Below the pieces are notes generated by a model. The model was not told the DNA's origin. It saw only the letters and a list, made by a program, of their open reading frames with translations, and ran no database searches. Below, piece after piece: positions 2,326 through 23,930 of a stretch of 24,830 bases of DNA (the first letter of the stretch is position 1; each line of letters opens with the position of its first letter). The position numbers and the translations under genes are program-made. Origin of the DNA: a virus; IMG/VR virus record IMGVR_UViG_3300010342_001192, positions 1-24,830 of that record, one strand, 5' to 3'.

Positions 2326-4220
2326 TATAAGTTAGAAACAATATTTTTGTTTTGATTACTGTTAAAGTTAACTGGGGTAATTCCTCTCAATTGAATATTT
2401 ACAGTTGAAAGCCTATCTTTTGCAACTGAATCATCATAAGTAATTCCAAGTTGACTTTCGAATCCTCCTCTAATAAGAGGATATATGTCCTTGACAGTTA
2501 CTCTATTTCCAAATGCGTCTAATACAAATCTTTCGAGAATAATATCGCCATAATCATCAAGGCCATATCCATTTCCATAAATTGTAAAATTGTTTTTGTC
2601 TGCATCAAACCAGACAGATACAGAGTCTACTCCATCAATGCCTTCAATTATTCTAACTAAATCTGATTGAGGGATTCTATCTCTTCTGGTATTCTTTAAG
2701 AAATAATCAGAGGTTTTTGAAATAATTTGTTCCCTGATATTGTTAAGATCATAACCCTCATAGATAACTAAGGCAACATTTAGAACGAATTTAGGATATC
2801 GAAGAGTCATAATAGCATTATCTACGGTAAGTATCCTTTGCCCGCTTTCTTCAATCAAATCTAAAATTCCTCTTTTTTCAAGATCAGTTAATTGGAATGA
2901 ATCTAATCCACAAGTAAAATAATTCTGATTTGCTGGGATCCTTTGATTAACATCTGGAACTAAATAAAGATAAACAGTGTTATCGTCTTTTTTCTGCTCT
3001 TCAACTTGGCTTTGCCAATAATAAAGTTGGGTTTGAGCATTATCTAATTCGGTTTTCTTAGCAAGCGATTGAGAAGCCGAAGCCCCCACTGTTGCTAACA
3101 AAGTTCTGTATTGTTCGCTTATATTTTCGTAAGTAGTTTTGGCTACATTATACTTATCAATTGTGTATTTGTCCTCGAATGTTGCAAATCCGGGAATAGC
3201 ATCAACAATAGTAAACATATTCAATTTACGTAAAAAATAAATGTAATTATCAGTATTAGCTAAAACAAAACTTCTTGACATGTGAGGAGCAAGTAATCTA
3301 GTAAGATATACAGGTTCCTCATTAGCTCCAAATAAAACATCCTTTTGAATAGAAACTCTAAGAATCTTATTAAGATCTATCTCCTGACTATTAATAGAAT
3401 ACCCCTTTCCTTCAAATTTCCAGTTGGCTGTCGTTTTAGCTTCTGCCGTTCTAATATTTCCTGCATCCCCATCAGTTAACAAATATTCTACAAGGATCGT
3501 TGATCCAAGAGGGGGAACAGAACCGTTATAACCATTCCCAAAGAAGACATCAATACCTCCGGTTTGTCCTGTTTTAACTATAACAGATTCTTCATTAAAA
3601 TTCATATCAAGAATAGATTCCCTCTTTGCCCATTTTTTACCATTAACATAAATATTAACAAAAAAATTATCTATAATGGATCCTTTTTTAGCTTGGAAGT
3701 TAAATGATTGTAGAGGATCACCGGTTCCCGTTGATTGTTGATATTCTAATTTACCTTGAACAATATTTACATCAACATAATTTGTTACAGAACCAAGATC
3801 TAGTCTAACTTCATTTCCGGGTAATACAATAGTATAAGTTAGACCATTATAAGTTGAAATAATTCTAGTATAATTTGGAATAACTGCGGTGTTCCCATAA
3901 ATATCTAATTTCTGCCCATTATAGAATAATCTTAGAGTCCCCCTAGCAGCTACACCTCTGGATGAATTGTGACCTGTTAAGGCTGCAAGACCCTTTACAC
4001 TCTGAGATCTAGAAGCCGTGTTGATATTTAATTCCGTTATAGAGTCCTCAATATAATATAGGATTGTTCTACCAAGATTAAGAATAACCTGAAGAAGCTG
4101 ACCCATAGGAGATGCCATGGTAAAATATTGTCCAGCATCTTCGTATGTTTGTTTTATAAAGTTAATTGAATCCTGATATAATTCGGATAATCGGATTCGG
4201 GCAGTTTTAATTATACTCAT
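2325..4220 (-). CDS. Baseplate wedge subunit, T4 gp6-like / baseplate J-like (631 aa)
   Basis: N-terminal pattern (SPMGQLLQVILNL...YIEDSITELNINTA...SVKGLAALTGHN..R..AA.G.L) typical of gp6-like wedge proteins; size fits and a gp25-like gene lies nearby. Confidence 0.7.
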   Translation of the reverse strand: MSIIKTARIRLSELYQDSINFIKQTYEDAGQYFTMASPMGQLLQVILNLGRTILYYIEDSITELNINTASRSQSVKGLAALTGHNSSRGVAARGTLRLFYNGQKLDIYGNTAVIPNYTRIISTYNGLTYTIVLPGNEVRLDLGSVTNYVDVNIVQGKLEYQQSTGTGDPLQSFNFQAKKGSIIDNFFVNIYVNGKKWAKRESILDMNFNEESVIVKTGQTGGIDVFFGNGYNGSVPPLGSTILVEYLLTDGDAGNIRTAEAKTTANWKFEGKGYSINSQEIDLNKILRVSIQKDVLFGANEEPVYLTRLLAPHMSRSFVLANTDNYIYFLRKLNMFTIVDAIPGFATFEDKYTIDKYNVAKTTYENISEQYRTLLATVGASASQSLAKKTELDNAQTQLYYWQSQVEEQKKDDNTVYLYLVPDVNQRIPANQNYFTCGLDSFQLTDLEKRGILDLIEESGQRILTVDNAIMTLRYPKFVLNVALVIYEGYDLNNIREQIISKTSDYFLKNTRRDRIPQSDLVRIIEGIDGVDSVSVWFDADKNNFTIYGNGYGLDDYGDIILERFVLDAFGNRVTVKDIYPLIRGGFESQLGITYDDSVAKDRLSTVNIQLRGITPVNFNSNQNKNIVSNL

Positions 4221-4678
4221 AGTATTTTACTATATTTTTCTCGATTCTTTTTTAAATTTTTTAACCAATCCTGAATTTCTTCAGTATAAATTAATTTTGT
4301 ATCCCAGGACAAATGCCATTGTGGTCTATTCTCAATAGCTAAATCTGTTAGAATTTGAATAAGCTTTTTTCCATCATCTTCAGATAAACATTCAAATTTA
4401 ACTGCATTGCCTTCCAGTACTCGAACAACTTTAACATAGAAATGATTCCATTTAGATATGGAAATATCTTCGGGGTTTACCCCTGCACTCATAAGAAGTT
4501 CTACGGTCTTTGCTATATTTTCAATATGTAGATTTACCTTTTTATCTTCTTCTCCTGATTGATCCCATGTAGTGTCAAATTCGACTCCTTTTTGTTCAAG
4601 GGATTTTCGAATACCTATCTGAAGAGCATCTTTTGGATCTTTTCCTCTTTCAAAATTAATATTTTCTCTAACTAACAT
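4217..4678 (-). CDS. Hypothetical protein carrying the FxRGxDP..IG tag (long class, MLVRE-NINFERGKDPKDALQIG)
   Basis: 153 aa ORF coupled on both sides (TAATG at 4678, ATGA at 4217-4220); tag at 4613-4654. Confidence 0.8.
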   Translation of the reverse strand: MLVRENINFERGKDPKDALQIGIRKSLEQKGVEFDTTWDQSGEEDKKVNLHIENIAKTVELLMSAGVNPEDISISKWNHFYVKVVRVLEGNAVKFECLSEDDGKKLIQILTDLAIENRPQWHLSWDTKLIYTEEIQDWLKNLKKNREKYSKIL

Positions 4679-5045: not shown

Positions 5046-5061
5046 TTTTTATTTATATATC
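5046..5061 (-). promoter_or_regulatory. T4-like late promoter GATATATAAATAAAAA
   Basis: Contains TATAAATA 9 nt upstream of the gp25-like ATG; identical 16-mer at 23285-23300 upstream of a structural gene. Confidence 0.7.
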
Positions 5062-6378: not shown

Positions 6379-7197
6379 ATGATTATTTACGAGTCTGTAT
6401 ATCCTTTTTTAAATGAAGAGTTTCTAGCATCCGAGATTCTAAATGAAAAATTCGACATCAATAGTATAAAAAATGTTGCTAAGAAAGCTGCTATTCTTGC
6501 ATATATGTTTCTAATGACAGCTTCTAATAAAGGATATAAGGATTTACCCAGCAAAGAAGAAGTTAAGAATTCCAAACCCCTTATCTATTTAGCAAATCAA
6601 GATCATATTTCAAAAAAAGAGGTGGATGAGGAATTCAATAAATTATTCAAAAAATATTTTTATCCTTGGAGTGAGCCTCGATTAAATTATGATATTCTCC
6701 AAGATCCATTTCAATTATCTACAAGTCCTGAAGGAATGGAATTTATTAAAGAACATGAAAAATTAAAGCTAGAAGCTTATGAAATTGGGGATGGAATGGT
6801 TACCATTGGATATGGGCATGCCGAACCAATCCAAACTTCCAGGTTTAAAAAAGGAGATAAAATTACCATAGAGGAAGCGAACAAACTTTTTATGGAAGAT
6901 CTTAAAAAAGCAGAAGATGGGTTAAGAAGATTATTTACTATGTGGAATGACCAAGGAATAAATGTTATGATTTCCCAGCACATGTGGGATTCCATGGTTT
7001 CTATGGCTTATAATATGGGGGTTGGCGGATTAAGATCCACAGATTTTGTTTTATCTCTTAAAGATCAAAATTATATAGAAGCTGCAGATAGCATATTATC
7101 TTCTGGAGTTAAAAAAGCGGATAAATTTCCGGGATTAATAAATAGAAGAGAAGCAGAAAAAGAGTTATTTCTTAAAAATCTTTTACCAATAACTTAG
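6379..7197 (+). CDS. GH24 (phage lysozyme) muramidase with about 110 aa N-terminal extension
   Basis: HEKLKLEAYEIGDGMVTIGYGH catalytic region, MVSMAYNMGVGG and GLINRREAEKELF C-terminal motif of GH24 lysozymes. Confidence 0.85.
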   Translation: MIIYESVYPFLNEEFLASEILNEKFDINSIKNVAKKAAILAYMFLMTASNKGYKDLPSKEEVKNSKPLIYLANQDHISKKEVDEEFNKLFKKYFYPWSEPRLNYDILQDPFQLSTSPEGMEFIKEHEKLKLEAYEIGDGMVTIGYGHAEPIQTSRFKKGDKITIEEANKLFMEDLKKAEDGLRRLFTMWNDQGINVMISQHMWDSMVSMAYNMGVGGLRSTDFVLSLKDQNYIEAADSILSSGVKKADKFPGLINRREAEKELFLKNLLPIT

Positions 7198-7475
7198 ATC
7201 CATTCCCCTTCAAGACTAGGATCCTGGGCATCCAAAGCCATATCTCTGGTGACCTGAATTCTGTTATAATAAGGGTCGTTAATGCAGCAATCCCCATGAA
7301 GTAATTCTGTTTTTGAATCTCCTATTTCATCAATAATAGATGTAACCCTTTTAAATTCTTCTCCAGTAAGAGGAACTCCATTCTCATCAGTGGGTGTTCC
7401 GCAATGACCGCATCGATAAATTTTAATACCAATGCCCATAGCTTTTAGTGGATCCTGTCCTCTTTCAAAATTCAT
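7194..7475 (-). CDS. Tagged small protein (short class) with Cys cluster, possible metal binder (93 aa)
   Basis: MNFERGQDPLKAMGIG; CGHC and a distal GDCC. Confidence 0.75.
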   Translation of the reverse strand: MNFERGQDPLKAMGIGIKIYRCGHCGTPTDENGVPLTGEEFKRVTSIIDEIGDSKTELLHGDCCINDPYYNRIQVTRDMALDAQDPSLEGEWI

Positions 7476-7749
7476 TGTTTATCGGATAAATAAAATCTGA
7501 AAAATCCTCGGGTTTCTCTTCTCCTGGGAATTTTATTTTAAAATAAAGCCCTTCCCTATCCATGGTAACCTCTATCTTTAATTCTAATCCTACCTCTTCA
7601 TTGAAGGAACGCATAATTCTTTCTCTCACCGATGGATAAATCATTACAGTTCTATTTTCATCGACGAGTTTTAGAAGAACCTCGGATGCTTTTTTTCTGA
7701 TCCCTATCCCCATTATTTTTTTCGGATTCTGTCCTCTTTCAAAATTCAT
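7465..7749 (-). CDS. Tagged small protein (short class, 94 aa)
   Basis: MNFERGQNPKKIMGIG; ATGA coupling upstream; its stop lies inside the next gene's tag. Confidence 0.75.
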   Translation of the reverse strand: MNFERGQNPKKIMGIGIRKKASEVLLKLVDENRTVMIYPSVRERIMRSFNEEVGLELKIEVTMDREGLYFKIKFPGEEKPEDFSDFIYPINNEF

Positions 7750-8111
7750 CTTATGAAATATTTTTTGCCTTCATATAAAACATAAGAGCCAAATATTTCT
7801 GAAAAACGAATGGATTCTACCCCTTTAATAATTCCATCCGTAATAATAAATTTTCCTTTATCCGTTTCATTTATAATTTTTCCCACTCCATAATATTCTT
7901 TTAAAAAAGGAGTTAATCCCTTGGAATTTATAAATTCGAGAATCTTTTTAGCAGTTTTCTCTGCAAAAATTGTTTCTTCAAAATATCCTTCCCCGTCACC
8001 ATCCAAATTTACACAAGGTATAAAATGATAAACCCCAGAGATTTCAATAGGATTTTGACTTCTCCCTATTCCAATTCGATCAAATATTTCTCCTTCTCTT
8101 GTAAATTTCAT
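7746..8111 (-). CDS. Small protein with degenerate tag (121 aa)
   Basis: MKFTREGEIFDRIGIG keeps F, R and IG at tag spacing. Confidence 0.7.
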   Translation of the reverse strand: MKFTREGEIFDRIGIGRSQNPIEISGVYHFIPCVNLDGDGEGYFEETIFAEKTAKKILEFINSKGLTPFLKEYYGVGKIINETDKGKFIITDGIIKGVESIRFSEIFGSYVLYEGKKYFIR

Positions 8112-8117
8112 CGTATT

Positions 8118-8183
8118 TTAAAATCTATTTGAATTGATTCGATACTTTTCTTTACAGTAAACATTACCTCTTTCGAAATTCAT
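8118..8183 (-). pseudogene. 21-codon minigene or relic of a tagged gene (MNFERGNVYCKEKYRINSNRF*)
   Basis: Hand translation; ATGA-coupled to the upstream stop at 8180-8183, ends 6 nt before the next ATG; holds only the first half of the tag. Confidence 0.55.
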
Positions 8184-8539
8184 TTTGGTATTTTAAATGT
8201 AAATTCCTGTGGCTTAATATCATCACTCCAAATCTGAGCCATTATTCTAGGATAATAAATGTATTTTAAATATTTCCCTTTATATTGAGAAAGATCTTCA
8301 ACCATTTCTTGTCCTTTGATAACAACTTTAAAAAGATCCGAGCTAAGTTCCCCATCCTCTATCATTTGTAGCATATCTATAACTTCTTTTGGGTCTTCGA
8401 TAAATTGTGTTCGCTGATGTGTTCGCCAAATATAATCGTCGAACCTACTTATCTTAATAAGTGATTCAATGTACAAGGCTTTTGATATTTCCCCTATATT
8501 TAGGGATTTCTTAGGATCCAATCTTCTTTCAAAGTCCAT
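8180..8539 (-). CDS. Tagged small protein (short class, 119 aa; start reassigned from 8617 to 8539)
   Basis: MDFERRLDPKKSLNIG begins at Met27 of the track ORF; the longer start would overlap the upstream gene by 89 nt. Confidence 0.75.
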   Translation of the reverse strand: MDFERRLDPKKSLNIGEISKALYIESLIKISRFDDYIWRTHQRTQFIEDPKEVIDMLQMIEDGELSSDLFKVVIKGQEMVEDLSQYKGKYLKYIYYPRIMAQIWSDDIKPQEFTFKIPK

Positions 8540-9029
8540 GATACTTATTATAATAATCCAAAAGTAATTGCTTAACCTCCGGATTTGGTCGATTTTCATG
8601 CATATATCTCGAAGCAAGATTAATATAGGCCCCGAAATTTGTAGCTCTCATAGGTCTTTTTTCATCACCTCTCTCTACATATTGTCCTTTTAATTCCGAA
8701 GTTCCATGATCCAAAATAAACGTCTCCTCCGGAAATAAATTAGGAATGGTTAAAAGAGCTTTTACAGCTGCTACATTTCCTTCTGATACAGAATCCCATA
8801 GATAATCTGGATCCGAGAAATCAATTTTTTCACCATTAACCCATTTTTTCCCATTTAAACTAATAAGATATGGAAAAACAATATCCTTTTTTCTTCTCAA
8901 TGCCCATGTCCAGACTTCAAAAATATCATCATAAGAAAAATCCCTGGAATGACTCATCCAGTTTTTAATCTTAGGGCCTAACCCTATTCCTAATGCTTGT
9001 TTAGGATCTGCTCCTCTGACAAAATTCAT
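8529..9029 (-). CDS. Tagged protein (short class, 166 aa), possibly helical/ankyrin-like core
   Basis: MNFVRGADPKQALGIG; LWDSVSEGNVAAVKALL resembles one ankyrin-like unit. Confidence 0.75.
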   Translation of the reverse strand: MNFVRGADPKQALGIGLGPKIKNWMSHSRDFSYDDIFEVWTWALRRKKDIVFPYLISLNGKKWVNGEKIDFSDPDYLWDSVSEGNVAAVKALLTIPNLFPEETFILDHGTSELKGQYVERGDEKRPMRATNFGAYINLASRYMHENRPNPEVKQLLLDYYNKYHGL

Positions 9030-9325
9030 AATACTCCGTCTTTTTTAAGCATTTCAACAACATCTGGGATAGAAGCACCGCCATAATTAAACATGCCTAA
9101 ATCGTAAGATATAGAATATTCCTGCCCCATTTCAATTAACTTTATATAACTACCGTTAACCGAACTTGACCAACAAAAAATTATTTCTGGATTATTTGGA
9201 TAAGGTGATGAACTTGTTAAATCAAGTTTAATTCTTTTTGCTAATAATCCTACCATCTGGAGAGCATATTCTCTTCGTCCTATGCTCATAGCTTCTTTGG
9301 GGGCTTTTCCTCTTTTAAATTCCAT
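9026..9325 (-). CDS. Tagged small protein (short class, 99 aa; start reassigned from 9340 to 9325)
   Basis: MEFKRGKAPKEAMSIG follows a TAA-A-ATG junction with the upstream gene. Confidence 0.75.
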   Translation of the reverse strand: MEFKRGKAPKEAMSIGRREYALQMVGLLAKRIKLDLTSSSPYPNNPEIIFCWSSSVNGSYIKLIEMGQEYSISYDLGMFNYGGASIPDVVEMLKKDGVL

Positions 9326-9326
9326 T

Positions 9327-9641
9327 TTAGATTTTATCATTAATTTCCCAATCTCCGTTCTCGTTCATAGATGAAATAAATTCTTCCTCACCTATACGGC
9401 ACTTAATAAAGGTATGAGGCTTAAAATCAAAAGGATCATAAATTAATCTAGGATGACCAATACAAATAGCAACTATTGGTTCTCCCTTTCTCTGCTTTTC
9501 CTGAAGAGGATAAAATTCTGGACAAGATTTTCTCAAGAGAAATTGAACTATGAAAGATCTCCCTTCTCCAGGTATACGGCCATTATGATTTAGACCAATA
9601 TCCAAAGATCTTTTAGGATCAATTCCTCTTTCGAAGTTCAT
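9327..9641 (-). CDS. Tagged small protein (short class, 104 aa), first gene of the short-class cluster
   Basis: MNFERGIDPKRSLDIG; preceded by an intergenic TATATTTGC. Confidence 0.75.
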   Translation of the reverse strand: MNFERGIDPKRSLDIGLNHNGRIPGEGRSFIVQFLLRKSCPEFYPLQEKQRKGEPIVAICIGHPRLIYDPFDFKPHTFIKCRIGEEEFISSMNENGDWEINDKI

Positions 9642-9691: not shown

Positions 9692-10285
9692 TTAACGATT
9701 TTTTTGATTGGCGGACTCGCTTGTTAAAGAAGCCATTTGCCATTTCCTTTGGTCAAGATATTTTGGGTTTCTTGAACCATATCCATAAGGAACATTTTTT
9801 GTTTTTAATAAAGGCGATTTTATATGTTCTTTTCCCATTTCGAGTTCGGATCTTTCTTCACTTCCTTCATATTCAGCAACGGGGATTAATCTAGATGTAT
9901 AATTATCGTCTTGTTTCCATGAATTTTTATCAATGACTTCTACTTCCCAACCTATCATATCTTCTCCTAATTTATCAGAAAGAAGATCTATAGCTTCGAA
10001 GAAAGTTTCCCTATCTGGATATTTCCAAAAACTTATTAATTTTTTATCGGTCCATAGTCTTCCAGATAATGTATTTCTGGTTCCTTCAGGATGGGTTTCC
10101 CCGGCTGGGCCAATATGAAAGATTCCATCTTCATACCAAAAAGCATGAGCATCTTCATCGCTAAAATGAGGGGATTTAAAAATATCATTTTCCAAAGGCT
10201 CTCCATACTTATTATAAGTAAGATGAGGCATGGAAATTTCATCAGGACTTTCAAATATTTTTAACGATTCTTTAACTATTTTCAT
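9692..10285 (-). CDS. Hypothetical protein with MKIVKES leader but no tag (197 aa)
   Basis: Starts MKIVKESLKIFESPDE, sharing the long-class prefix; ATGA-coupled. Confidence 0.75.
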   Translation of the reverse strand: MKIVKESLKIFESPDEISMPHLTYNKYGEPLENDIFKSPHFSDEDAHAFWYEDGIFHIGPAGETHPEGTRNTLSGRLWTDKKLISFWKYPDRETFFEAIDLLSDKLGEDMIGWEVEVIDKNSWKQDDNYTSRLIPVAEYEGSEERSELEMGKEHIKSPLLKTKNVPYGYGSRNPKYLDQRKWQMASLTSESANQKNR

Positions 10286-11529
10286 ATCTCATCTAATCTA
10301 TTTGAAAGGGAATCATTAAAAACCTCAGAGGTTATATCTCCATTATAACTATATTGAGGAGGATAATATTTTATCTTATAATCACTATCGTATAATGCTA
10401 AGCAGCCAAATAATTTTTCAATACCATTTAGAGAAATTGGTGCATAAAAATGGGAATAATTATTTGGTTTTTCCACCCATTTTATTTCTTCATCATTAAT
10501 ATCAAAATGCTTTTTAATAGCATTTTTCAAATCTTTAAAAGCTTCATCCTGATCTGCCATTTCTTGGGAATCTGTCCAAGCAAATCTAATAGCATCATGA
10601 AGATCTTCATACTCATCATTTGATTCTATTTCATCAAATAGTTCTTCAAGATTATTTGCTGTTTCTGGATCCCCGCCTCTTTCGATAAATTTTTCTTTAA
10701 GATCGTCTAAAGCAGGTATTTTTCCTTTTGCCAAAAGCCTTTTAAGAAACCAAGTCATTTCAGTAATATCGCCGAAATTAACGCTATCATATTCAAAGTA
10801 CTCTTCAACATTTTCCCCCGATAAAACAGCTTCAACGAAATCTTTACTTAAATTCCTTGTATCTGTATCAAATAAATCTGAGAAACTTTGCCATCCATCA
10901 AATGAAAGAAAGTATTTCCCATTTTTAAATTCATATTGAATTTCATCACTAGGAAGCTTAACATAAGGAATCCATTGAATACCCCATTTCTTTAATTCAT
11001 AAAAGTCATTTTCATCAAGACTATTATTATATTCTGGATTTTTAATCAGAAACTCAATCCATTGTTTCCTTGTTTCGTGATCAAGTTCGGCATCTTCTTC
11101 TGTAAGTAAATAGGAGATCCACATGGCAGGACTATCACTAGTTCTTTCTCTTAAAAAATTAGATATTTTTTGTTCCAAACCAACATTCATTGCTTTCTTT
11201 GGGTCCAAACCTCTTTCGAAATTCTGAGCCTCCGACATGCTTCCGGAAGTATCCCCGCCAAAGCCAAGAAAAAGCTTATCTAAAAGTTCTTTCGATCCCA
11301 GATACTCTTTATGATTAACTAAAAATAAAAGCCATGATTCTTTTGTCCTATCGTCAAGATCTTTATCTTCTTGTATTTCCCATATCCAACCAGTTGGAGA
11401 GGACCAAGATGAATCGCCTTCAGACATTTTTTTTCGAGCATAATTTATAATTCTTGGGAAAATTCCAATATCGATGGCTTGTTTAGGATCTAAACCACGT
11501 TCAAAATTTATGGATTCTTTTACTATCAT
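10282..11529 (-). CDS. Double-tagged acidic protein with internal duplication (415 aa)
   Basis: Tags at 11464-11505 and 11179-11220, each followed by a similar helical unit (SSPTGWIWEIQEDKDLDDRTKESWLLFL / DSPAMWISYLLTEEDAELDHETRKQWIEFL). Confidence 0.8.
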   Translation of the reverse strand: MIVKESINFERGLDPKQAIDIGIFPRIINYARKKMSEGDSSWSSPTGWIWEIQEDKDLDDRTKESWLLFLVNHKEYLGSKELLDKLFLGFGGDTSGSMSEAQNFERGLDPKKAMNVGLEQKISNFLRERTSDSPAMWISYLLTEEDAELDHETRKQWIEFLIKNPEYNNSLDENDFYELKKWGIQWIPYVKLPSDEIQYEFKNGKYFLSFDGWQSFSDLFDTDTRNLSKDFVEAVLSGENVEEYFEYDSVNFGDITEMTWFLKRLLAKGKIPALDDLKEKFIERGGDPETANNLEELFDEIESNDEYEDLHDAIRFAWTDSQEMADQDEAFKDLKNAIKKHFDINDEEIKWVEKPNNYSHFYAPISLNGIEKLFGCLALYDSDYKIKYYPPQYSYNGDITSEVFNDSLSNRLDEI

Positions 11530-11978
11530 ACAACAATACGTCCGCCAACGGTACAGATCTTTTTAATTTCATCGACAGTAAATTTTTCCTTATTTCCTCG
11601 AATATAAAAATCCCCATCGACCTGTTTTGGACATCCTTCAAGATCCTCTATTTTATTATTATCTACGAAGAAATCTCCTTTAACAACTTTAGGAAGACCT
11701 TTCATAGACATTAAATTTTGATCTCTTATAATAACACTGCCATGACAAATACCGAAATCAACATATTCTGGTATTTCTTTAAGATCCCAATATCTTTGAG
11801 AAGGAATAACTAATTCCCTTACATCAATTGTCCAATCTGAATTGATTTTATATTTGGTATATTTGGTATATTTGTTTATCCATTCTTCGACTTTTCGTTT
11901 CCTTCCTAAATCTAAAGTTCGAGAAGGGTCTTCACTCCTCTCGAACTCATTAAGCCTTGGATAAAAAATATCCTTCAT
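11526..11978 (-). CDS. Tagged LRR-like/beta-solenoid protein (150 aa; start reassigned to 11978)
   Basis: MKDIFYPRLNE-FERSEDPSRTLDLG after a TAA-A-ATG junction; repeats SMKGLPKVVKGDFFVDNNKIEDLEGCPKQVDGDFY. Confidence 0.75.
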   Translation of the reverse strand: MKDIFYPRLNEFERSEDPSRTLDLGRKRKVEEWINKYTKYTKYKINSDWTIDVRELVIPSQRYWDLKEIPEYVDFGICHGSVIIRDQNLMSMKGLPKVVKGDFFVDNNKIEDLEGCPKQVDGDFYIRGNKEKFTVDEIKKICTVGGRIVV

Positions 11979-11979
11979 T

Positions 11980-13515
11980 TTAGAATATATCTTTATATTT
12001 TTCAATAAATCTATCTACGCCCTTCTGATATTTGTCTCTTCCCTCAACTTCTCCAAGTTCATCGTGGATATAAGGATGAAGGTCAATCATCATCTTAATA
12101 GCTCTGGTTGCAAGAGAACCATTGTCAAGACGGATAAGATAGGTTACAAAATTATCAAATTCTTCAGGAGTAATATCTCTTCCCCTGGTTGATGTACAAA
12201 CGAGAGATAGAAGAGCGTTAGCTTCTGACTGATCATATCCGGATCCAGCTTTCTTAGGCATACGAGCTTTTTCAGGATGGGCAAGAACCTCTTTAATATC
12301 TTCTTTTTTGAAGGATTCAAGAAGTCTTAGGAATGTTTGGAACTCTGTTGCAATATCCATACCAACGTCTGAACCAACTACGTTTGTTATATCCTGAATA
12401 GAAGGCTTATAACCTTCATCAGCAGCATCCTGCATTAGAAGAGCAATATTCTTAGAAGCTGCTTCCCATGAACGAGGGCTAGCAAAGATGCTCTTTTCTG
12501 GATCATCGTCAAGAGTATAGAAATATTCTTGGTTAAATTCTAGGAAGTCAAGTATTCTTTGGTCAACTTTATTCTGTGCCCATTCTTTCCAACCAGCAAA
12601 ATCAGGAATATAGTTAACCTGCGAGAATCTGTTTCCGAGAGCTGTTGAGAAGTTCTGAACACCTTCAGGGTCATCTCCTGCTCTGTTGGATGCTGAAACA
12701 ATCGTCCATTTAGAACCTAGAACTGCGTCCCCAATAATTCTTTCATCAATAAGTTTTAAGCAAGTATTTTGAACGGACCCGGATGCACGGGAAAGTTCAT
12801 CCAAGAATAAAATACCTCCTTCACCCATATTAGCTATGCCATCTCTTCTTTTATCTTCTTCTGCATCGCCGCTCTTAATATAAACAGGAAGCCAAGATTT
12901 AGGAATATCCCTAGCTTTTAATTCATCATCAACTTTATAAGTTGCTGGAAGTGACCAGTCATCTGGGGCCATTTTAGAAGTTTGGACATCGATCAATCTT
13001 CCTTTTGTATTCTGTGCAAGAACTGCTTTAACAATTGCGGTTTTTCCAATACCAGGAGCTCCCCAAATCATAAGAGGTTTCCCCTGTGGGTTCTTTAAAA
13101 CCATACGAATTCTTCTATATAATTCTTTCTTTCCTACATTAGGAACGTTTTTATCAGGGTGTTCAAGTTTTATTCTAGCTTCATTAATAGTTCCCTCTTT
13201 AAGATCCGGTCCTCTTTTCTGAATAACTTTTTCAGCGGTAAGGGATTTTAGTTCAGGGCTTAATTCAACATCACCCTGGGAAGCTACATAAGAAATAGAT
13301 TTTGGTAAAGCACCATCCTTATCTAATATCCCAATATTAACAGGAGCCATAGCTTCTGTAACAGGTTGCCCCTGGAAAATGAAGAAAAAAAGCTTTCCAA
13401 CTTTCTGGAAGAATTTTTTAATAGCTTGTCCTATTTTGCTGAAGATCGCTTCATTTAGTTCTCCTCTAGCAATCTGAAAATCCTGGAGAGATTCAAATAC
13501 TAATTGTTTTTTCAT
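11980..13515 (-). CDS. MoxR-type AAA+ ATPase with N-terminal extension (511 aa)
   Basis: Walker A IWGAPGIGKT, Walker B GILFLDE, sensor ASNR, PRSWE motif; linked to a vWA partner. Confidence 0.9.
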   Translation of the reverse strand: MKKQLVFESLQDFQIARGELNEAIFSKIGQAIKKFFQKVGKLFFFIFQGQPVTEAMAPVNIGILDKDGALPKSISYVASQGDVELSPELKSLTAEKVIQKRGPDLKEGTINEARIKLEHPDKNVPNVGKKELYRRIRMVLKNPQGKPLMIWGAPGIGKTAIVKAVLAQNTKGRLIDVQTSKMAPDDWSLPATYKVDDELKARDIPKSWLPVYIKSGDAEEDKRRDGIANMGEGGILFLDELSRASGSVQNTCLKLIDERIIGDAVLGSKWTIVSASNRAGDDPEGVQNFSTALGNRFSQVNYIPDFAGWKEWAQNKVDQRILDFLEFNQEYFYTLDDDPEKSIFASPRSWEAASKNIALLMQDAADEGYKPSIQDITNVVGSDVGMDIATEFQTFLRLLESFKKEDIKEVLAHPEKARMPKKAGSGYDQSEANALLSLVCTSTRGRDITPEEFDNFVTYLIRLDNGSLATRAIKMMIDLHPYIHDELGEVEGRDKYQKGVDRFIEKYKDIF

Positions 13516-13533
13516 TGCAGTTCTAGTTTTATT

Positions 13534-15168
13534 TTATATTTTATTTATCTTAGCTTTTATCTTATCAATTTCTTTATCCGATAATTCCTCGTGGATCTTT
13601 GGTTTTGACAAAATAATTTCAATCATCTTTAACCAATTCTCCTTTGCCTTTTCTGAAGTTCCTACCTTACTTATCTTAGAAATAAGCATTTGAAGTGTTT
13701 TCTTTACTTTTACTCTTGGGTCTTTTAAAAGCTCCTCAACAGCAGCAAAAGCTTGATTAGCAGCAGCTTCATAAATTATATAATTATCTTCATAGACAAT
13801 ATTATAATTTTTATCCAAAGATTCTTTTGCATCGGCAGGATTAACCCTGGGATCTTCCATTAATTTTTTTACGGCATCAACATTATTATTTTTTGCTGCT
13901 TGATATAATGCTTCATTATGATTATCAGCTGGATTTACTCTTTCATCTTTTAATAGTAATTCAATCACATCTGGATTACCTCCCATAGCAGCTGATGCAA
14001 TTATAGAATTTTTTCTAAAAGCTGGGTTTGCAGCAGGATCCGAAAGGAGGAGTCTAACAATATCTACATTTCCCTTCATAGCAGCTCTTGTTAAAATCCC
14101 ATTTTTATCTTCCATTTTTAAAGGAAAATTCTTTAATGATGGATATTTAGCTATTTCATTATTAACTTCTTCAATAAAATCCCCAAGAAGCTTCTCCCTT
14201 CCTATACCTATATTAGCTTTAGCATCCCCGCCTCGTGTAAAGCCTAAAGCTTCTCGGATCGGATTATTCTCCATCATTTTTCTAAGTCTTTTCTGAGAAA
14301 GTTCTTTCATATATGGAACTTCTTTTTTAACTCTAGGATCTGATAATAAAAGACTTACCATTTCCCTATCCCCATTATTTAAAGCCGCTGCTAGAGCCCA
14401 ATTATCTCTGCTTGTGGGATCTACTCTTTTATCTTTTAAGAGGAGTTTAACAATATCTACATATCCATTTTTTGCAGCTCTTCTAATGCAATAATTAGTT
14501 TCATCATTTCCATATCTTTTGCCATCTCGGGTTTGAGCTGCTGGATCTACAATAGGACTGGATAAAAGAGCTTTGGCAACTTCTAGATCTCCTCTTTCAC
14601 AAGCTTTTTGGATAGGGCCATCAGAATCTATATTTAAATTGGTTGCTCCGTTTTCAATAGCCCATAATAAAAGCTCCGGGGTCCAATGAGAATACGATAA
14701 AGAAAATGCTTTATTTGGTCCTAATTTTTTTATACCATCTATAGTTCTCTGAGGTTCATATCTCATAAAATCAATGAAAGTATATTCAGTTATCCATGAT
14801 TTAGGAGCATTCCAAAGATCATCTTCTCTTCCTAATAAATAAAATGCTTGAACCCATCCAGAAGCATAACTTTCCAAATTATTTGGATTAAAGGTTTTTA
14901 TTTTGTCCAATAATTCATTAAAAACTTGCATCATAGCAGGCCTGTTTTGATTCATTGAATAAAAACTAGCGATTTTTCGAGTATCAATATGATAGATCTT
15001 TTTTTCTGTAAAATCATTAAGTGATTTTGGTGCTTCTGATTTTAGAGCCCAAGAATGATCATGAGCTAAATCTTCCATCATCTCTGGAAAAAGCGCAGCC
15101 TTTCCAATAGCCATTCCTTCTTTAGGATCTATATTTCTAGTAAAAGATATAGCTTCCCTGACAATCAT
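13534..15168 (-). CDS. Double-tagged ankyrin-repeat protein (544 aa)
   Basis: About seven ankyrin units (e.g. CIRRAAKNGYVDIVKLLLKDKRVDP) in blocks of 3 and 4; tags at 15103-15144 and 14200-14241. Confidence 0.85.
   Translation of the reverse strand: MIVREAISFTRNIDPKEGMAIGKAALFPEMMEDLAHDHSWALKSEAPKSLNDFTEKKIYHIDTRKIASFYSMNQNRPAMMQVFNELLDKIKTFNPNNLESYASGWVQAFYLLGREDDLWNAPKSWITEYTFIDFMRYEPQRTIDGIKKLGPNKAFSLSYSHWTPELLLWAIENGATNLNIDSDGPIQKACERGDLEVAKALLSSPIVDPAAQTRDGKRYGNDETNYCIRRAAKNGYVDIVKLLLKDKRVDPTSRDNWALAAALNNGDREMVSLLLSDPRVKKEVPYMKELSQKRLRKMMENNPIREALGFTRGGDAKANIGIGREKLLGDFIEEVNNEIAKYPSLKNFPLKMEDKNGILTRAAMKGNVDIVRLLLSDPAANPAFRKNSIIASAAMGGNPDVIELLLKDERVNPADNHNEALYQAAKNNNVDAVKKLMEDPRVNPADAKESLDKNYNIVYEDNYIIYEAAANQAFAAVEELLKDPRVKVKKTLQMLISKISKVGTSEKAKENWLKMIEIILSKPKIHEELSDKEIDKIKAKINKI
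13542..13549 (-). promoter_or_regulatory. Late-promoter variant GATAAATA embedded in the end of the ankyrin gene
   Basis: GATAAATAAAA 26 nt upstream of the AAA ATG, followed by AAAACTAGAA as in the gp25 leader. Confidence 0.35.
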
Positions 15169-16943
15169 TAGCTAATATTAATTTGCTTGCCAAATGGTTG
15201 CTGCCATTGAGGATTATCATAAACCATCCAAATGAATTTATGAGCATAAGGTGGTTTTTTTGGATTGGGGGCTCCTCCATCTGTAAAGAATACGCAAAGA
15301 GAAACTCTATCTTTTAATTTATCATGTACCCAATCAAGGGCTTTTTGGAAGCTAGTCCCCCCACCCCCTCTAACATTTTTAGGGATATAGGGTTTTCCCA
15401 TTTTTTTAATGGTCTGAACACTTCCTTCGTCAACTCCATCATCAAAGAAAGCTACTGTAATTTTATTAACTCTTTTTGAGAAAATAATTTGGTTAATTTC
15501 ATTTAATATTTTTTCTAGAGCTTCCCTACCCATAGAACCAGAAACGTCGACTAATACTACAATATGTTCCATAGCATCCATCTTATGTTTCTCTCCATAA
15601 CGTAGAAATTCCCCGCTTAAGTGTTTTTTATTTCCAATTTTCTGATATGTTTCAGGGGATAGAGCAGTTGCAACATATCTTCTGAACATATTTTGCCAGT
15701 TAACATCTCCTCTATGTAATCTTGAAAGTGCTGTAACAAGAGCACCTCCTTTTCCAGTACCTCTTCCCTTTGATCCTTTTAAAGCACGATCGAGCATTTT
15801 TGCCCCCTCAACACGCCATTTATCTGTCGGACTTTCGTCTGGCCCCATTTCCCCTTCTCCATATCCGCTTGCTTTAGCAATTTTCTTTCCCATTTCTGGA
15901 GTAATAATACCTCCTGTTCCAGCAGGGTCATATTCCTCAGCTTGATCGAAACTTTCTTCGTATCCATCACTTCCGGATCCACCAACACCTTTATCTTCGC
16001 CTTCTCCTTCTTCTCCTTGTCCCTGTCCTTGGCCTTGCCCTTGCCCCTGACCTGAATCAAGAGGAATTAATTCATCTTTTTTATAACTTTCAAAAAGATA
16101 GGTGACTAAAAGACTTTCATTAAGAGGACCTACCTCATAAGTTCCATCAGGATTAACTGCAGTAACAACTCCTTTTTCCCCTGTAGCTTTAATCTTAACT
16201 TTACTACCTACTTGAAGAGGTTGGGGTTGACCTTTTCCACCGCCCTGCTGACCTTGACCCTGTCCTTGTCCTTGACCGCCACCTTGCTGATCTTGTCCCT
16301 GATTTTGCCCCTGATTATTCTTTTTAAATGGGTTAGGTGGCATTTTTGGAATAGTTTTCTTTAGATCATCATAAATCTGTTCAACGGGAACATTTAAATA
16401 TTTTTCATCATAAAGACCATAAATTTTTTCTACAAATTCCTTATTGAAGTCACTTAAAGTATCTACTATAATGGTATTAATTTCATAGTCCCCAGCAATA
16501 TTAAACAATGAAGCTGGTTTTCCTTCGGAAGTCATGACTGTTGCATTTCTAGATTTCATACGTTCCATGTGAAGGAGAACGCAGTGCATGATCTCATGAA
16601 TAATAACAAAAATCTTCTGCTCCCATGAAAGCTTATCAGCAAATAATGGATTTACAAATAATCTTGTTCCATCGGTTGCCATTGTAGGAACAATCCAAGT
16701 GTAGATTGGGGTAAATTTATGAACATAAGGGGCAAATAAAGGAGATTGAGAAACAATAGCTGTTTTAGCACTTTCCATTTCATTTTTAAGATGCCTCATG
16801 TCAATTTTGGTTCCATCTTTAGCGAAAACATATCTATAATCTTCGATCTTCGCTGATTTAGGAATATCCATTCCTTCTTTAGCTTCATACAAAAAATCGT
16901 TTATTTGAGGATAAAATCTTGGATTTAATAGTTTCATATTCAT
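15168..16943 (-). CDS. DUF2201-type metallopeptidase-like plus vWA domain protein, MoxR partner (591 aa)
   Basis: HEIMHCVLLH zinc motif, NIAGDYEIN, MIDAS VDVSGSM, GGGT and FFTDGG. Confidence 0.85.
   Translation of the reverse strand: MNMKLLNPRFYPQINDFLYEAKEGMDIPKSAKIEDYRYVFAKDGTKIDMRHLKNEMESAKTAIVSQSPLFAPYVHKFTPIYTWIVPTMATDGTRLFVNPLFADKLSWEQKIFVIIHEIMHCVLLHMERMKSRNATVMTSEGKPASLFNIAGDYEINTIIVDTLSDFNKEFVEKIYGLYDEKYLNVPVEQIYDDLKKTIPKMPPNPFKKNNQGQNQGQDQQGGGQGQGQGQGQQGGGKGQPQPLQVGSKVKIKATGEKGVVTAVNPDGTYEVGPLNESLLVTYLFESYKKDELIPLDSGQGQGQGQGQGQGEEGEGEDKGVGGSGSDGYEESFDQAEEYDPAGTGGIITPEMGKKIAKASGYGEGEMGPDESPTDKWRVEGAKMLDRALKGSKGRGTGKGGALVTALSRLHRGDVNWQNMFRRYVATALSPETYQKIGNKKHLSGEFLRYGEKHKMDAMEHIVVLVDVSGSMGREALEKILNEINQIIFSKRVNKITVAFFDDGVDEGSVQTIKKMGKPYIPKNVRGGGGTSFQKALDWVHDKLKDRVSLCVFFTDGGAPNPKKPPYAHKFIWMVYDNPQWQQPFGKQINIS
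16015..16318 (-). repeat. Two Gly-Gln low-complexity tracts flanking a KOW/SH3-like insert in the vWA protein
   Basis: NQGQNQGQDQQGGGQGQGQGQGQQGGG (~16229-16318) and SGQGQGQGQGQGQG (~16015-16053). Confidence 0.8.
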
Positions 16944-16951
16944 TTATTTTT

Positions 16952-18214
16952 TTAATTCCATACTGTTCCGAGGACTTTTATTTTCTTTCGGATCTCATCC
17001 TCCTTCCATTTTTTTGATCCCGGATAGCTTGAATAGATTGAAAGATCTCCTTTAACTTCTTTTGGAAACCCATCAAGTTTTGTAAAAATATTTTGAGCTA
17101 CATAAAAACCTCCATATATTATCTTAAATTTAATAAAATATGGAAAATTATTTATATTGCAATCAACTAAATTTAAGTCATCTAAAACATCGATGGTTCC
17201 ATCTTTATTTATCCTATATTCTACATACTTATCATCATTTGGATCTTCAGAAATACCACATTCTTTAAACCAATTTTTTATCTGAGCATGGTATCCTATA
17301 TCTAAAGAGGATTTTGGATTAATATTTCTGTGAAATTCCATATTCTCTTTTATTGGTACATCAACTATTTCTTGTGGTTCATCACCCCAAGCAGATCCTT
17401 TTACTCTACAGACCTTTCGTATATCTTTTTGAGAAAATAACCCTGGATTATTATGGCAAACATAATTTCCATCTACATGTCTTGGCCCATCCTCTAATGT
17501 CATTAATTTATTGTTAGAGCATTTAAAATTACCTTTTAGATTTTCAGTTCCTACAACCTTTTTGGGGCACCCCCGTAAAGTTTTTAATTGGTTATCAGAA
17601 ATATCAAATCCTCCGATAACAGTTCCAAATTGAATATATTCTGGAAGGACTTCTCCTATATTTCTTAATCGTATAACTAATTGAACCTCAGGAGCTGTAT
17701 TTATAATAAGATCTTTCGAAATAACAGTATCCTCTAATAGATCATGTTCATTTAACCATTTTTCAATTAATGCCCTTTTACCTATATTCATGGAAACCAT
17801 TGGATCCCCTCCTCTGTGAAATTCTTGAGCTTCATTCATACTTCTGGGAAGAAATTCAAATAATCCGTTCTTAAATTGTTTTGGCGTTCCTTTTACAAAT
17901 CCATGTCTTGGGCGAACATTATCATTTTTATTTGCCTTAAAATCTTCTAAATCCACAAAATATTTAAACCAGATAATCCATTCCTTAGAAGACGAATTAT
18001 CAAATTCTTCCGTCTGTAATATAACACCTATTGGTAAATCGGAAACCGGGAAATCGCCGTATGATATTTCATTATTAGTGTCCAGAGGAATATTTTTTAT
18101 AACTTTTAGCAAATCTCCCTCATGAAGATTATTCCATGAAGGCATCCCAATTTTCATGGAAGACTTTGGATCTATTCCCCTTTCAAAATTAATATGTTCC
18201 TTTACAATTTTCAT
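16952..18214 (-). CDS. Triple-tagged protein: unique domain plus two LRR-like solenoid modules (420 aa)
   Basis: Tags at 18146-18187, 17780-17821 and 17294-17335; repeats TLRGCPKKV.G.FKCSNNKLMTLEDGP and KLDGFPKEVKGDL. Confidence 0.8.
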   Translation of the reverse strand: MKIVKEHINFERGIDPKSSMKIGMPSWNNLHEGDLLKVIKNIPLDTNNEISYGDFPVSDLPIGVILQTEEFDNSSSKEWIIWFKYFVDLEDFKANKNDNVRPRHGFVKGTPKQFKNGLFEFLPRSMNEAQEFHRGGDPMVSMNIGKRALIEKWLNEHDLLEDTVISKDLIINTAPEVQLVIRLRNIGEVLPEYIQFGTVIGGFDISDNQLKTLRGCPKKVVGTENLKGNFKCSNNKLMTLEDGPRHVDGNYVCHNNPGLFSQKDIRKVCRVKGSAWGDEPQEIVDVPIKENMEFHRNINPKSSLDIGYHAQIKNWFKECGISEDPNDDKYVEYRINKDGTIDVLDDLNLVDCNINNFPYFIKFKIIYGGFYVAQNIFTKLDGFPKEVKGDLSIYSSYPGSKKWKEDEIRKKIKVLGTVWN

Positions 18215-18669
18215 TCGCTATCATCTGCTTGAATGTTTGGGGCAAAACAAACTTTTCTTATTTCAGCTTCGGTAAATTCTGCTTTATTTCCAAAACAATA
18301 AACACACTCACGGACCTCTTTTGGAAACCCCTTTAAATCTGTAATTTCATTCATTTGACAAGAAAAATATCCATTTACTTTTTTGGGGCATCCAACCAAG
18401 GAAACTATTCCGCAATCATCAATATCAAAAGAACCTGAAGAATTAAATCTAATATAATCAGGAAATCTTCCATTTGGAAATAATTCCGGTCTTTCAACTG
18501 CAATGACATCCAAATCCGTATCTATAGTAAAATCCGAATTAAGCTTATAATTTCTTACCCCGATATGAACCTCATCAAGCCAGCCCTGAATTAATTTAGC
18601 TTTTCCAATACCTATGGCTTCTTTAGGATCTAATCCCCTTTCAAAATTGATATTTTCCCTAACTATCAT
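18211..18669 (-). CDS. Tagged LRR-like solenoid protein (152 aa)
   Basis: MIVRE-NINFERGLDPKEAIGIG; SLVGCPKKVNGYFSCQMNEITDLKGFPKEV. Confidence 0.8.
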   Translation of the reverse strand: MIVRENINFERGLDPKEAIGIGKAKLIQGWLDEVHIGVRNYKLNSDFTIDTDLDVIAVERPELFPNGRFPDYIRFNSSGSFDIDDCGIVSLVGCPKKVNGYFSCQMNEITDLKGFPKEVRECVYCFGNKAEFTEAEIRKVCFAPNIQADDSE

Positions 18670-19040: not shown

Positions 19041-19736
19041 TTAGTTAAATTTTAAGGTCAACTCTTCCTTAACAATTTTATTTTTATTTACATTTCTATC
19101 GAATTTATGAGGATACCAAACCCCCTTCGATCTTAAAAATTTAAGTATTTTTATAAAACTATATTTATTTTCTAATTCTCTTTCTATAACTCTGGATCCA
19201 AATCCTTTAGAATAAAGATCCAAAATTTTTTCTTCATCCTCGATAGGAATTATTTTATATGATGGGTTATTGGATCCAGCAAATTGACTGCATTTTTTAT
19301 TTTTGTTCCAAGGTATTTGTCCAATATGAGATAATGATTGGTTTTTTCGACGTTCAGATGTATGTTTAACCCCCAATAAGGAATTTCTGATTTTTTCTTT
19401 ACATTCATCATTATGAAAACCGCAGCTAGGACCGATTTTCATATTATACCCAAATTTTGGCAAATACGTTTTATCTTTTTGTATCCAAAATAATTCTCTC
19501 AAATTTAAAATTTTAATTAAATCTGTTTTTTCTTCTAGCTGATATTCTTCAATAATTTTCCATTCGAAATTTTCAAATCCATATTTTCGTAAAGCTCTCT
19601 GAAATGATCCTTGTAAATTTCGAATAAAGCATCCTCCCCGATGACATTTTTTCCTTCTTTCTAAAGAGGAAGTTGTTTGCCCGTAATATTTTTTACCTTT
19701 CGGGCTAGTAGCTAAATATATAAATCCTTTATACAT
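19041..19736 (-). mobile_element. Free-standing GIY-YIG homing endonuclease with NUMOD3-like repeats (231 aa)
   Basis: GFIYLATSPKGKKYYGQT...R...H, conserved Glu helix and GYN, then HNDECKEKIRNSLLGVKHTSERRKNQSLSHIGQIPWNK. Confidence 0.8.
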
Positions 19737-23284: not shown

Positions 23285-23300
23285 GATATATAAATAAAAA
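23285..23300 (+). promoter_or_regulatory. T4-like late promoter GATATATAAATAAAAA
   Basis: Contains TATAAATA 13 nt before the ATG at 23310; identical to 5046-5061. Confidence 0.7.
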
Positions 23301-23309
23301 TCTAATAAT

Positions 23310-23930
23310 ATGAATTGGGATCAAATTTATTTGGATACTTTTATCCCCGAATTACCAAGACATTGGAATAATAACTTCGCTTCTGTTAAGCGTTATCTTG
23401 ATGTTTTTTATGATGGTAGTCTCGGAATAATCATAAAACCTGTTAATACAACCGGAAGGGTAAAAGCAGCCAGAGGGGAATTTGTAACGGCTGTAGTTGA
23501 TAACCTTATCGTTAAAAACCAGTTTACAAATCTTTACGATAATACAACTTCAGTAGATGGCGATTTCTATAATACCTATATAGGAGCAGATGTTTCAACA
23601 AGAGCAGCAGATCCCTCTCTATGGGAGAATACCTCTTTTGCTTATGTTGATGTCAATAAACCCTATTATAAAATTACAAATGATATTTCAACCGCTTTTC
23701 TTTGTTCAATAATGGGGCAAGAGTTTCAGATCCTATTCGATATTTCTACAAATACAGCACCTTATAATATATTATTAGACCCTAGTATTGGAGGAACTTT
23801 TCAGACTTTAAGCGTTGCGTATGCTGATGCTCCAACAACTTGGATAAAACTGATTGCTGTAGATTATGATGCTTCCTATGGAACTACATGGGCAGTAAAA
23901 CAATACGGCGGAAATTATACAATAATTTAA
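23310..23930 (+). CDS. Probable virion structural protein (206 aa)
   Basis: Late promoter; T/S/D/N-rich beta-type composition; RVKAARGEF. Confidence 0.55.
   Translation: MNWDQIYLDTFIPELPRHWNNNFASVKRYLDVFYDGSLGIIIKPVNTTGRVKAARGEFVTAVVDNLIVKNQFTNLYDNTTSVDGDFYNTYIGADVSTRAADPSLWENTSFAYVDVNKPYYKITNDISTAFLCSIMGQEFQILFDISTNTAPYNILLDPSIGGTFQTLSVAYADAPTTWIKLIAVDYDASYGTTWAVKQYGGNYTII

Follow-up and report, generated by a model that had tools for sequence, protein, structure and literature searches.

Recurrent tags with a Glu-cleavage-like prefix in multi-module proteins of T4-related giant phages: candidate processed polyprotein cargo

Introduction

The 24,830-nucleotide stretch of viral DNA considered here (positions 1 to 24,830 of the IMG/VR record IMGVR_UViG_3300010342_001192, hereafter the window) is phage DNA with a GC content of about 33%, in which one short peptide motif recurs across a series of open reading frames (ORFs). 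The motif, hereafter the tag, has a core of 14 residues, F-E-R-G-x-D-P-K-x-x-h-x-I-G (where "h" is a hydrophobic residue), and 16 minus-strand copies of it are found between 4.2 and 18.7 kb. Twelve of these open an ORF or stand close to its start, and the other four are internal. An earlier note on this DNA had divided the copies into a short class, in which the ORF begins M-x-F, and a long class, in which the tag follows a hydrophobic-x-Glu (h-x-E) site, and had proposed that ORFs with several tags are polyproteins cut after the Glu such that a tag is exposed at each new N-terminus. The evidence assembled below, from comparison of the window with its relatives, suggests that these junctions are probably cut after the Glu by the prohead protease of the phage. 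The tag itself is recognised by neither Pfam nor PHROGs, and a full-text literature search for the motif string returned nothing relevant.

Conservation of the h-x-E prefix

Throughout, coordinates are those of the whole window, a tag is located by the first base of its Phe codon, residues around it are numbered relative to that Phe, and a downward arrow marks the putative cut. The ten long-class tags are present on the minus strand exactly as the earlier note had read them, and its observation of a Glu precisely four residues before the Phe holds for nine of the ten, all nine additionally having I, V or M at −6. The short-class copies likewise begin M-x-F, with one ambiguous case (9319), and the ORFs at 10282, 13534 and 16952 are genuine open frames with multiple tags.

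In order to follow the prefix beyond the window, a hidden Markov model was built from the 14 core residues alone, leaving the upstream residues unbiased, and was run on the stop-to-stop frames of the window and 54 related viral loci; a tag preceded by 50 or more residues of open frame was counted as internal. The scores were clearly bimodal, and 229 unique tags passed, including 93 internal ones. The fixed position of the Glu extends to these, being found at −4 in 91 of the 93 internal tags, while the remaining two are off by a single residue, such that every internal copy has a Glu within −5 to −3. At −6, which would be the P3 position of a site cut after this Glu, 80 of the 93 carry V, L, I or M, and V, L, I, M or F at −6 is combined with Glu at −4 in 84. 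The residue at −3 is usually small (S in 65, A in 13 and N in 5, together 83 of 93), and the positions upstream of −6 are unconserved. Outside the tags, the same ORFs show h-x-E at 2.6% and h-x-E-[SAN] at 0.4% of positions. The prefix pattern is far beyond chance, and in the internal copies the Glu at −4 matches the tag core itself in invariance.

A profile search of a library of 1.84 billion representative proteins recovered at least 1740 tag-bearing clusters, with a maximum of 12 tags in one protein of 1511 residues. Among 147 further multi-tag proteins, the best of the library matches, which were chosen with a profile covering positions −8 to −1 as well, a Glu stands at −4 in 441 of 451 internal tags. 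In the same set, P3 is V, L, I or M in 381 tags and A in 11, with G being rare.

The start codons of the N-terminal copies are distributed bimodally, lying either at −2 to −4, without a Glu, or at −8, −9 or −11, with an h-x-E between the start and the tag. A further possibility, namely that a second cut follows the tag and renders it a removable propeptide, was considered and rejected, as no conserved Glu keeps a constant distance from the Phe anywhere between +14 and +35 and sites at variable positions are indistinguishable from chance.

Structure of the tagged proteins and diversity of the modules

Structure prediction with AlphaFold allows the tags to be placed relative to the folded parts of these proteins. 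In the model of the three-tag ORF of 420 residues, the sole segments with a predicted local distance difference test (pLDDT) value below 50 are residues 1–22, 126–144 and 280–307, i.e., the three tags, between which lie three domains with a pLDDT of about 80–94. In the single-tag protein of 152 residues (18211–18669), residues 1–8 fall below 50 and the body is at 88–98, with the D-P-K part of the tag opening the first helix. As modeled, the tag is a conserved linear motif in exposed linkers. The alignment of the homologues of the 420-residue ORF (alignment A2) shows little or no variation at E128, F132, E290 and F294, and the Glu at residue 5 of the 152-residue ORF is invariant in 19 homologues.

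The bodies following the tags are diverse. Module size, or inter-tag spacing, is mostly 90–160 residues, and BLAST clustering sorts 220 module bodies into 119 groups, the same families being seen both N-terminally and internally. Further, a single cargo family can appear as a short-class gene (with an M-N-F start), as a gene with a long leader or as an internal module. For example, the family encoded at 7194–7475 recurs in the related locus L006 as an internal module behind L-E-E-S-V-N. Orthologues of the window ORFs differ by whole tag-plus-module cassettes, the number and order of which vary freely, with the breakpoints inside the tags. Pfam searches with 139 tagged ORFs detected only ankyrin, leucine-rich repeat (LRR) and GNAT domains, with no replication enzymes among them, and a Foldseek search with the 152-residue module gave only weak LRR-like matches. 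One cargo body, with the pattern G-C-P-x-x-V-x-G-x-F-x-C-x-x-N (pLDDT 88–98), is repeated in 18211–18669 and in the C-terminal modules of 16952–18214, and a copy with 33% identity to it is present in LR756501 and LR756503, 735-kb records of uncultured phage.

The earlier note had held that both routes, a start codon placed directly before the tag and a cut after the Glu, leave the tag close to a free N-terminus. The bimodal starts and the occurrence of cargo families in all three forms fit this proposal, while a requirement of the tag for a free end is not established.

Prohead protease and capsid-protein sites in the relatives

The proteases of T4, phiKZ, 201phi2-1 and SPN3US all cut after Glu (PMC9026906, PMC5694885). 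Within the capsid targeting sequence of T4, it is residues 8 (I) and 10 (E) that govern processing (PMC9026906, PMC5694885). An enzyme of this type is encoded by a close relative of the window, a 133-kb fragment (G002) with 36 tags and about 80% protein identity, whose gp6-like, gp25, MoxR, VWA and S1 proteins are 75–88% identical to those of the window. It contains a Peptidase_S77 (T4 gp21-type) prohead protease (PF03420, 55.5 bits against a 27-bit cut-off), homologues of which adjoin the capsid gene in more than 30 loci. Its gp23-type major capsid protein matches the solved T4 gp23.

In the capsid protein of this lineage, the same [L/I]-x-E↓[A/S/N] pattern stands where T4 gp23 is known to be cut. 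About 30 relatives conserve A-L-N-E↓A-[A/E]-M-G-G in this protein and a more distant group has I-N-E↓N, to be compared with L-T-E↓A-E-I-G-G at the known maturation cut of T6 gp23. Mature gp23* begins 65 residues in, an offset which agrees with the solved mature chains. The tag prefix is the same four-residue pattern as these presumed head-maturation sites of the lineage. Additionally, three conserved h-N-E-[S/A/G/N] sites directly follow the protease domain, and fit the C-terminal autocleavage reported for related giant-phage proteases (PMC5694885).

In the 133-kb fragment (L078:3393 onward) and its relatives, the protease is fused, in one open frame of about 845 residues, to a charged, scaffold-like stretch of considerable length, the end of which lies immediately ahead of the capsid gene. 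A complex prediction of the protease domain (alignment A5, residues 1–162) with a 44-residue tag junction (alignment A4) gave a score of 0.00 in both runs and was used neither way.

A variant tag with a displaced prefix

A complete relative of 405 kb with terminal repeats (G009) bears on the nature of the prefix. The window-type profile found no window-type tag in it, and it carries 85 copies of a variant, h-N-E-K-F-x-E-E-S-D-P-I-x-D-M-G-I-G, distributed over 62 ORFs with up to six per ORF. These variant tags are located in L109–L129 (e.g., L110:10497–12234). The tag family is evidently broader than the F-E-R-G form. The core of the variant, from Phe to Gly, has the same length as in the window, and the insertion of E-K before the Phe has created a new h-x-E at −4 to −2, which is present in all 25 internal copies. 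The ancestral Glu, now at −6, is found in only five of these 25, versus 39 of the 60 N-terminal leaders. That the h-x-E has shifted and yet stayed invariant implies that the feature being kept is a site shortly before the Phe rather than a fixed distance or contact geometry, a pattern more in keeping with a cut site than with a rigid binding contact.

The N-terminal leader of the variant, M-K-I-V-R-E-H-I-N-E↓K-F, shares M1, K2, E6, I8 and E10 with the T4 targeting sequence, a likeness that may reflect homology or coincidence. In the same genome the word ATATATAAAATAAA recurs 10–25 nucleotides upstream of the start codons of several tagged ORFs and may represent a phage promoter.

Proposed processing of the tagged ORFs

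The tagged ORFs can be understood as cargo precursors of a T4-related giant phage with largely unrelated bodies, in which each module would open with a disordered linear motif of two parts, namely a protease site, [V/L/I/M]-x-E followed by a small residue (S/A/N), and the 14-residue tag. A gp21-type (Peptidase S77) protease would cut after the Glu. At the N-terminal copies this would remove a leader of 5–8 residues, whereas in the multi-tag ORFs it would split the chain, with each module then starting about three residues before the Phe. The resulting end would nearly equal the M-x-F end that the short-class genes acquire directly from their start codon. Under this scheme the 16952 ORF would be cut after E6, E128 and E290 to yield modules 7–128, 129–290 and 291–420, the 13534 ORF after E5 and E306 to yield modules 6–306 and 307–544, and the 10282 ORF after E5 and E100 to yield modules 6–100 and 101–415. 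By analogy with the T4 internal proteins, the prohead would be the site of the cutting, and the host would receive the packaged modules. What we infer here comprises the cut itself, the responsible protease, the packaging into the capsid and the role of the retained tag.

All the sequence-level predictions that were examined favour the cleavage of tagged polyproteins put forward in the earlier note. The associated notion, that the tag must stand at a free N-terminus, is not established, on account of the 405-kb relative, which is essentially devoid of the short class. This is one of several observations that weigh against the processing scheme. Two thirds of the N-terminal copies retain a conserved leader of 5–8 residues, which a model in which the cut serves purely to expose the tag does not need. 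The module bodies are not basic, their median isoelectric point of 5.9 being equal to background, unlike the T4 internal proteins, which are basic. The approximately 85 modules in 62 ORFs of a single genome would amount to many distinct species to package. To our knowledge, there is no characterised precedent for a conserved peptide which lies downstream of the cut and is retained. Finally, the evidence on the protease and the capsid protein rests on the relatives and not on the genome of the window itself.

A wider picture is possible, although we would put it at a little short of an even chance: a clade of giant T4-related phages might load its capsids with a large and rapidly reshuffled arsenal of small modules directed at the host, about 85 in one complete genome, made as polyproteins of up to 12 units that are cut in the prohead, with each unit keeping a 14-residue N-terminal handle for capsid retention or ejection. 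If so, it would combine polyprotein cargo with a retained targeting tag, neither of which has been described for tailed phages. A simple sequence rule would then predict the delivered effectors of uncultured giant phages, as candidate anti-defence and host-takeover proteins, and the tag with its cut site would constitute a portable device for loading foreign proteins into large capsids.

Alternative explanations

Four other accounts of the prefix have to be weighed. The strongest of them, though in our estimation unlikely, is that the whole stretch of some 20 residues, with its hydrophobic residue and Glu, stays uncleaved and acts as a short linear motif or flexible linker to which a shared partner (a chaperone, hub or scaffold, for example) binds, in which case the multi-tag ORFs would encode multivalent multidomain proteins. 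The tag is disordered and strongly conserved, as binding motifs are, up to 12 tags in a protein would confer multivalency, and the h-x-E prefix is kept at the N-terminal copies even though little would be removed there. However, the short class functions without the prefix, and cargo families switch between the forms. Further, the displacement seen in the 405-kb relative, where the distance from Glu to Phe moved by two residues with the Phe-to-Gly spacing fixed and the old Glu decayed internally, is hard to fit to one rigid interface, and the prefix matches the head-protein processing sites of the lineage.

Processing of the junctions by some other enzyme in the cytoplasm is an improbable variant of the cleavage scheme. 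Here the leading candidate is the pair formed by a DUF2201 metallopeptidase-VWA protein and a MoxR AAA+ ATPase, a host protease being the other option. Six related loci conserve this pair, which sits there in the midst of tagged genes, and in the 405-kb relative a MoxR/VWA pair is again flanked by variant-tagged ORFs. Additionally, the metal-ion-dependent adhesion sites of VWA domains classically bind an acidic side chain of the ligand, and the idea of a dedicated tag receptor stays as a minor rival. Against these points, most of the tag-rich loci (L030 and L051, for example) come from other parts of the genome and do not contain the pair, and such pairs are common in large phages (phrog_1297, phrog_1314). 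We know of no Glu-specific activity of DUF2201. An h-x-E with a small residue after it is what has been documented as the signature of the gp21-type proteases, and it agrees with the site in the capsid protein of the lineage.

Internal translation initiation at nearby Met codons, which would generate the internal modules without any cleavage, is suggested by the window itself, where three of the four internal tags (11220, 17821 and 17335) have a Met at −6 or −2. This coincidence does not extend to the relatives. A Met lies within 12 residues of only 23 of the 93 internal tags, as against the Glu at −3 to −5 in all 93, and for this reason internal starts are not a general explanation. Among the 451 internal tags from the library, Met is found 29 times at −6 and 10 times at −2, and the orthologues of the M-N-E site of the window read V-N-E or V-S-E (alignment A2). 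We regard this account as very improbable.

Equally hard to credit is a DNA-level cassette boundary or recombination site devoid of peptide function, which would accommodate the gain and loss of whole cassettes with breakpoints inside the tags and the fusion of the product of the 197-residue ORF to an extra module in L001, but the synonymous codons at the conserved tag residues follow the background usage of the window (Pro CCT 7, CCA 6, CCC 1, CCG 1; last tag Gly GGA 7, GGT 5, GGG 4), which points to selection on the peptide and not the DNA, and recombination within the tags is better viewed as a consequence than as a function. Cutting after the Glu by the gp21-type prohead protease is the reading preferred in what follows.

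Genomic context of the tag array

Besides the tagged ORFs (Table 1), the window encodes gp25-like and large gp6-like baseplate genes, an Hsp20, a lysozyme, a ribosomal-protein-S1-like gene, the MoxR AAA+ ATPase, the DUF2201 metallopeptidase-VWA protein and an ankyrin-repeat ORF.

Table 1. Tags, tag-bearing ORFs and embedded genes of the window
Feature	Position	Phe codon or residue	Strand	Description
Tagged ORF	4217–4678	4654	−	Between gp25-like and gp6-like baseplate genes; synteny kept in many loci
Tag, N-terminal	4613–4672	4654	−	L-V-R-E↓N-I-N-F
Short-class cluster	7194–9641	9635, 9319 (ambiguous), 9023, 8533, 7743, 7469	−	ORFs begin M-x-F, without Glu prefix
ORF, 415 residues, two tags	10282–11529	residues 9, 104	−	
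Tag, internal	11179–11238	11220	−	M-S-E↓A-Q-N-F
Tag, N-terminal	11464–11523	11505	−	I-V-K-E↓S-I-N-F
Tagged ORF	11526–12005	11945	−	Bears the exceptional tag; true start uncertain
Tag, exception	11904–11963	11945	−	L-N-E abuts F, Glu at −1
MoxR-type AAA+ ATPase	11980–13515		−	Inside tag array; 6 related loci, 59–99% identity; possible alternative processor or loader partner
ORF, 544 residues, two tags	13534–15168	residues 9, 310	−	Ankyrin-repeat (Ank_2, 4e-31)
Tag, internal	14200–14259	14241	−	I-R-E↓A-L-G-F; core D-A replaces D-P
Tag, N-terminal	15103–15162	15144	−	I-V-R-E↓A-I-S-F
DUF2201 metallopeptidase-like and VWA protein	15168–16943		−	Inside tag array; partner of MoxR gene
ORF, 420 residues, three tags	16952–18214	residues 10, 132, 294	−	
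Tag, internal	17294–17353	17335	−	I-K-E↓N-M-E-F
Tag, internal	17780–17839	17821	−	M-N-E↓A-Q-E-F
Tag, N-terminal	18146–18205	18187	−	I-V-K-E↓H-I-N-F
ORF, 152 residues, single long-class tag	18211–18669	18645	−	Leader M-I-V-R-E; weakly LRR-like body
Tag, N-terminal	18604–18663	18645	−	I-V-R-E↓N-I-N-F

Several of the genes in and around the array have features of their own. The 197-residue ORF at 9692–10285 starts M-K-I-V-K-E-S-L and continues into a decayed tag, F-E-S-P-D-E. In L001, the C-terminus of this ORF runs on in frame into an extra tagged module which the window lacks, the difference being a cassette deletion with its end inside a tag. The MoxR ATPase begins M-K-K-Q-L-V-F-E-S-L, with a leader-like h-x-E-S, and its AAA domain sets in only from about residue 148. 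This ATPase might itself undergo processing or packaging. In its partner, a Gly/Gln-rich low-complexity insert at residues ~205–330 interrupts the metallopeptidase-like domain. At the upstream edge of the tagged array, the ORF at 19041–19736 resembles, by the look of its sequence, a GIY-YIG homing endonuclease.

With regard to promoters, the T4 late-promoter word TATAAATA occurs at 5050–5057 on the minus strand, 10 nucleotides upstream of the gp25-like gene and hence ahead of the tagged ORF 4217–4678, and at 23289–23296 on the plus strand, upstream of the ORF at 23310. The word is enriched neither in the window, with four occurrences found against 4.8 expected, nor upstream of the tagged ORFs of the 405-kb relative.

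Comparison with known systems

The arrangement of the multi-tag ORFs may be compared to the polyproteins of RNA viruses, such as those with picornavirus 3C sites, in which a single ORF specifies several units that fold independently, with a short conserved protease site between them. Enzymes of the 3C type also read Gln or Glu at P1. The corresponding feature is seen here in the predicted structure of the 420-residue ORF, where independently folding units are joined by exposed linkers with the same site. Unlike these systems, the window belongs to a double-stranded DNA tailed phage, the units appear to be accessory cargo rather than a set of replication and structural proteins, and the number and order of the modules vary freely.

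A further parallel is provided by the giant phages phiKZ, 201phi2-1 and SPN3US, in which a distant homologue of gp21 cuts after Glu in numerous head proteins, among them paralogue families whose N-termini are identical. In these phages the protease also cleaves its own C-terminus, and several sites are possible in one protein (PMC5694885, PMC9026906). However, their proteases prefer A, S or G at P3, as opposed to the V, L, I or M found here as in T4. Their propeptides are long and are discarded, and neither a shared, retained tag nor bead-on-a-string polyproteins of unrelated modules have been described for them.

The closest likeness is to the internal proteins of T4 (IPI, IPII, IPIII and Alt), which are a diverse and fast-evolving cargo sharing only a short conserved N-terminal peptide (PMC3012670, PMC9026906). 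Their cut likewise falls after Glu, P3 being I or L and P1′ a small residue, as in IPII and IPIII, which start M-K-T-Y-Q-E-F-I-A-E↓A. In T4, an Asp at P1 prevents the processing while targeting persists (PMC9026906). The N-terminal leaders of the tagged ORFs (M-K-I-V-K-E...) resemble this T4 targeting sequence. Further, the lineage of the window possesses a protease of the gp21 type together with a gp23-type capsid protein whose cut site is homologous. The two systems differ in the placement of the conserved peptide. The T4 targeting peptide precedes the cut and is lost through it, whereas the conserved 14 residues here lie downstream of the Glu and would be retained, with only the N-terminal copies having a T4-like upstream leader. 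They differ also in architecture, the modules being chained with up to 12 tags per ORF in place of one protein per gene, in number, with about 85 copies per genome versus a handful in T4, and in the absence of a basic character in the bodies. If the proposed processing is correct, the T4 internal-protein paradigm would be extended to processed polyprotein cargo with a retained signal, on a scale of tens of modules in a genome and of 1740 or more protein clusters across public metagenomes. By its motifs and gene content, the system thus appears to resemble the internal-protein, targeting-sequence and gp21 system of T4, to which it would add a polyprotein architecture and a very large copy number.

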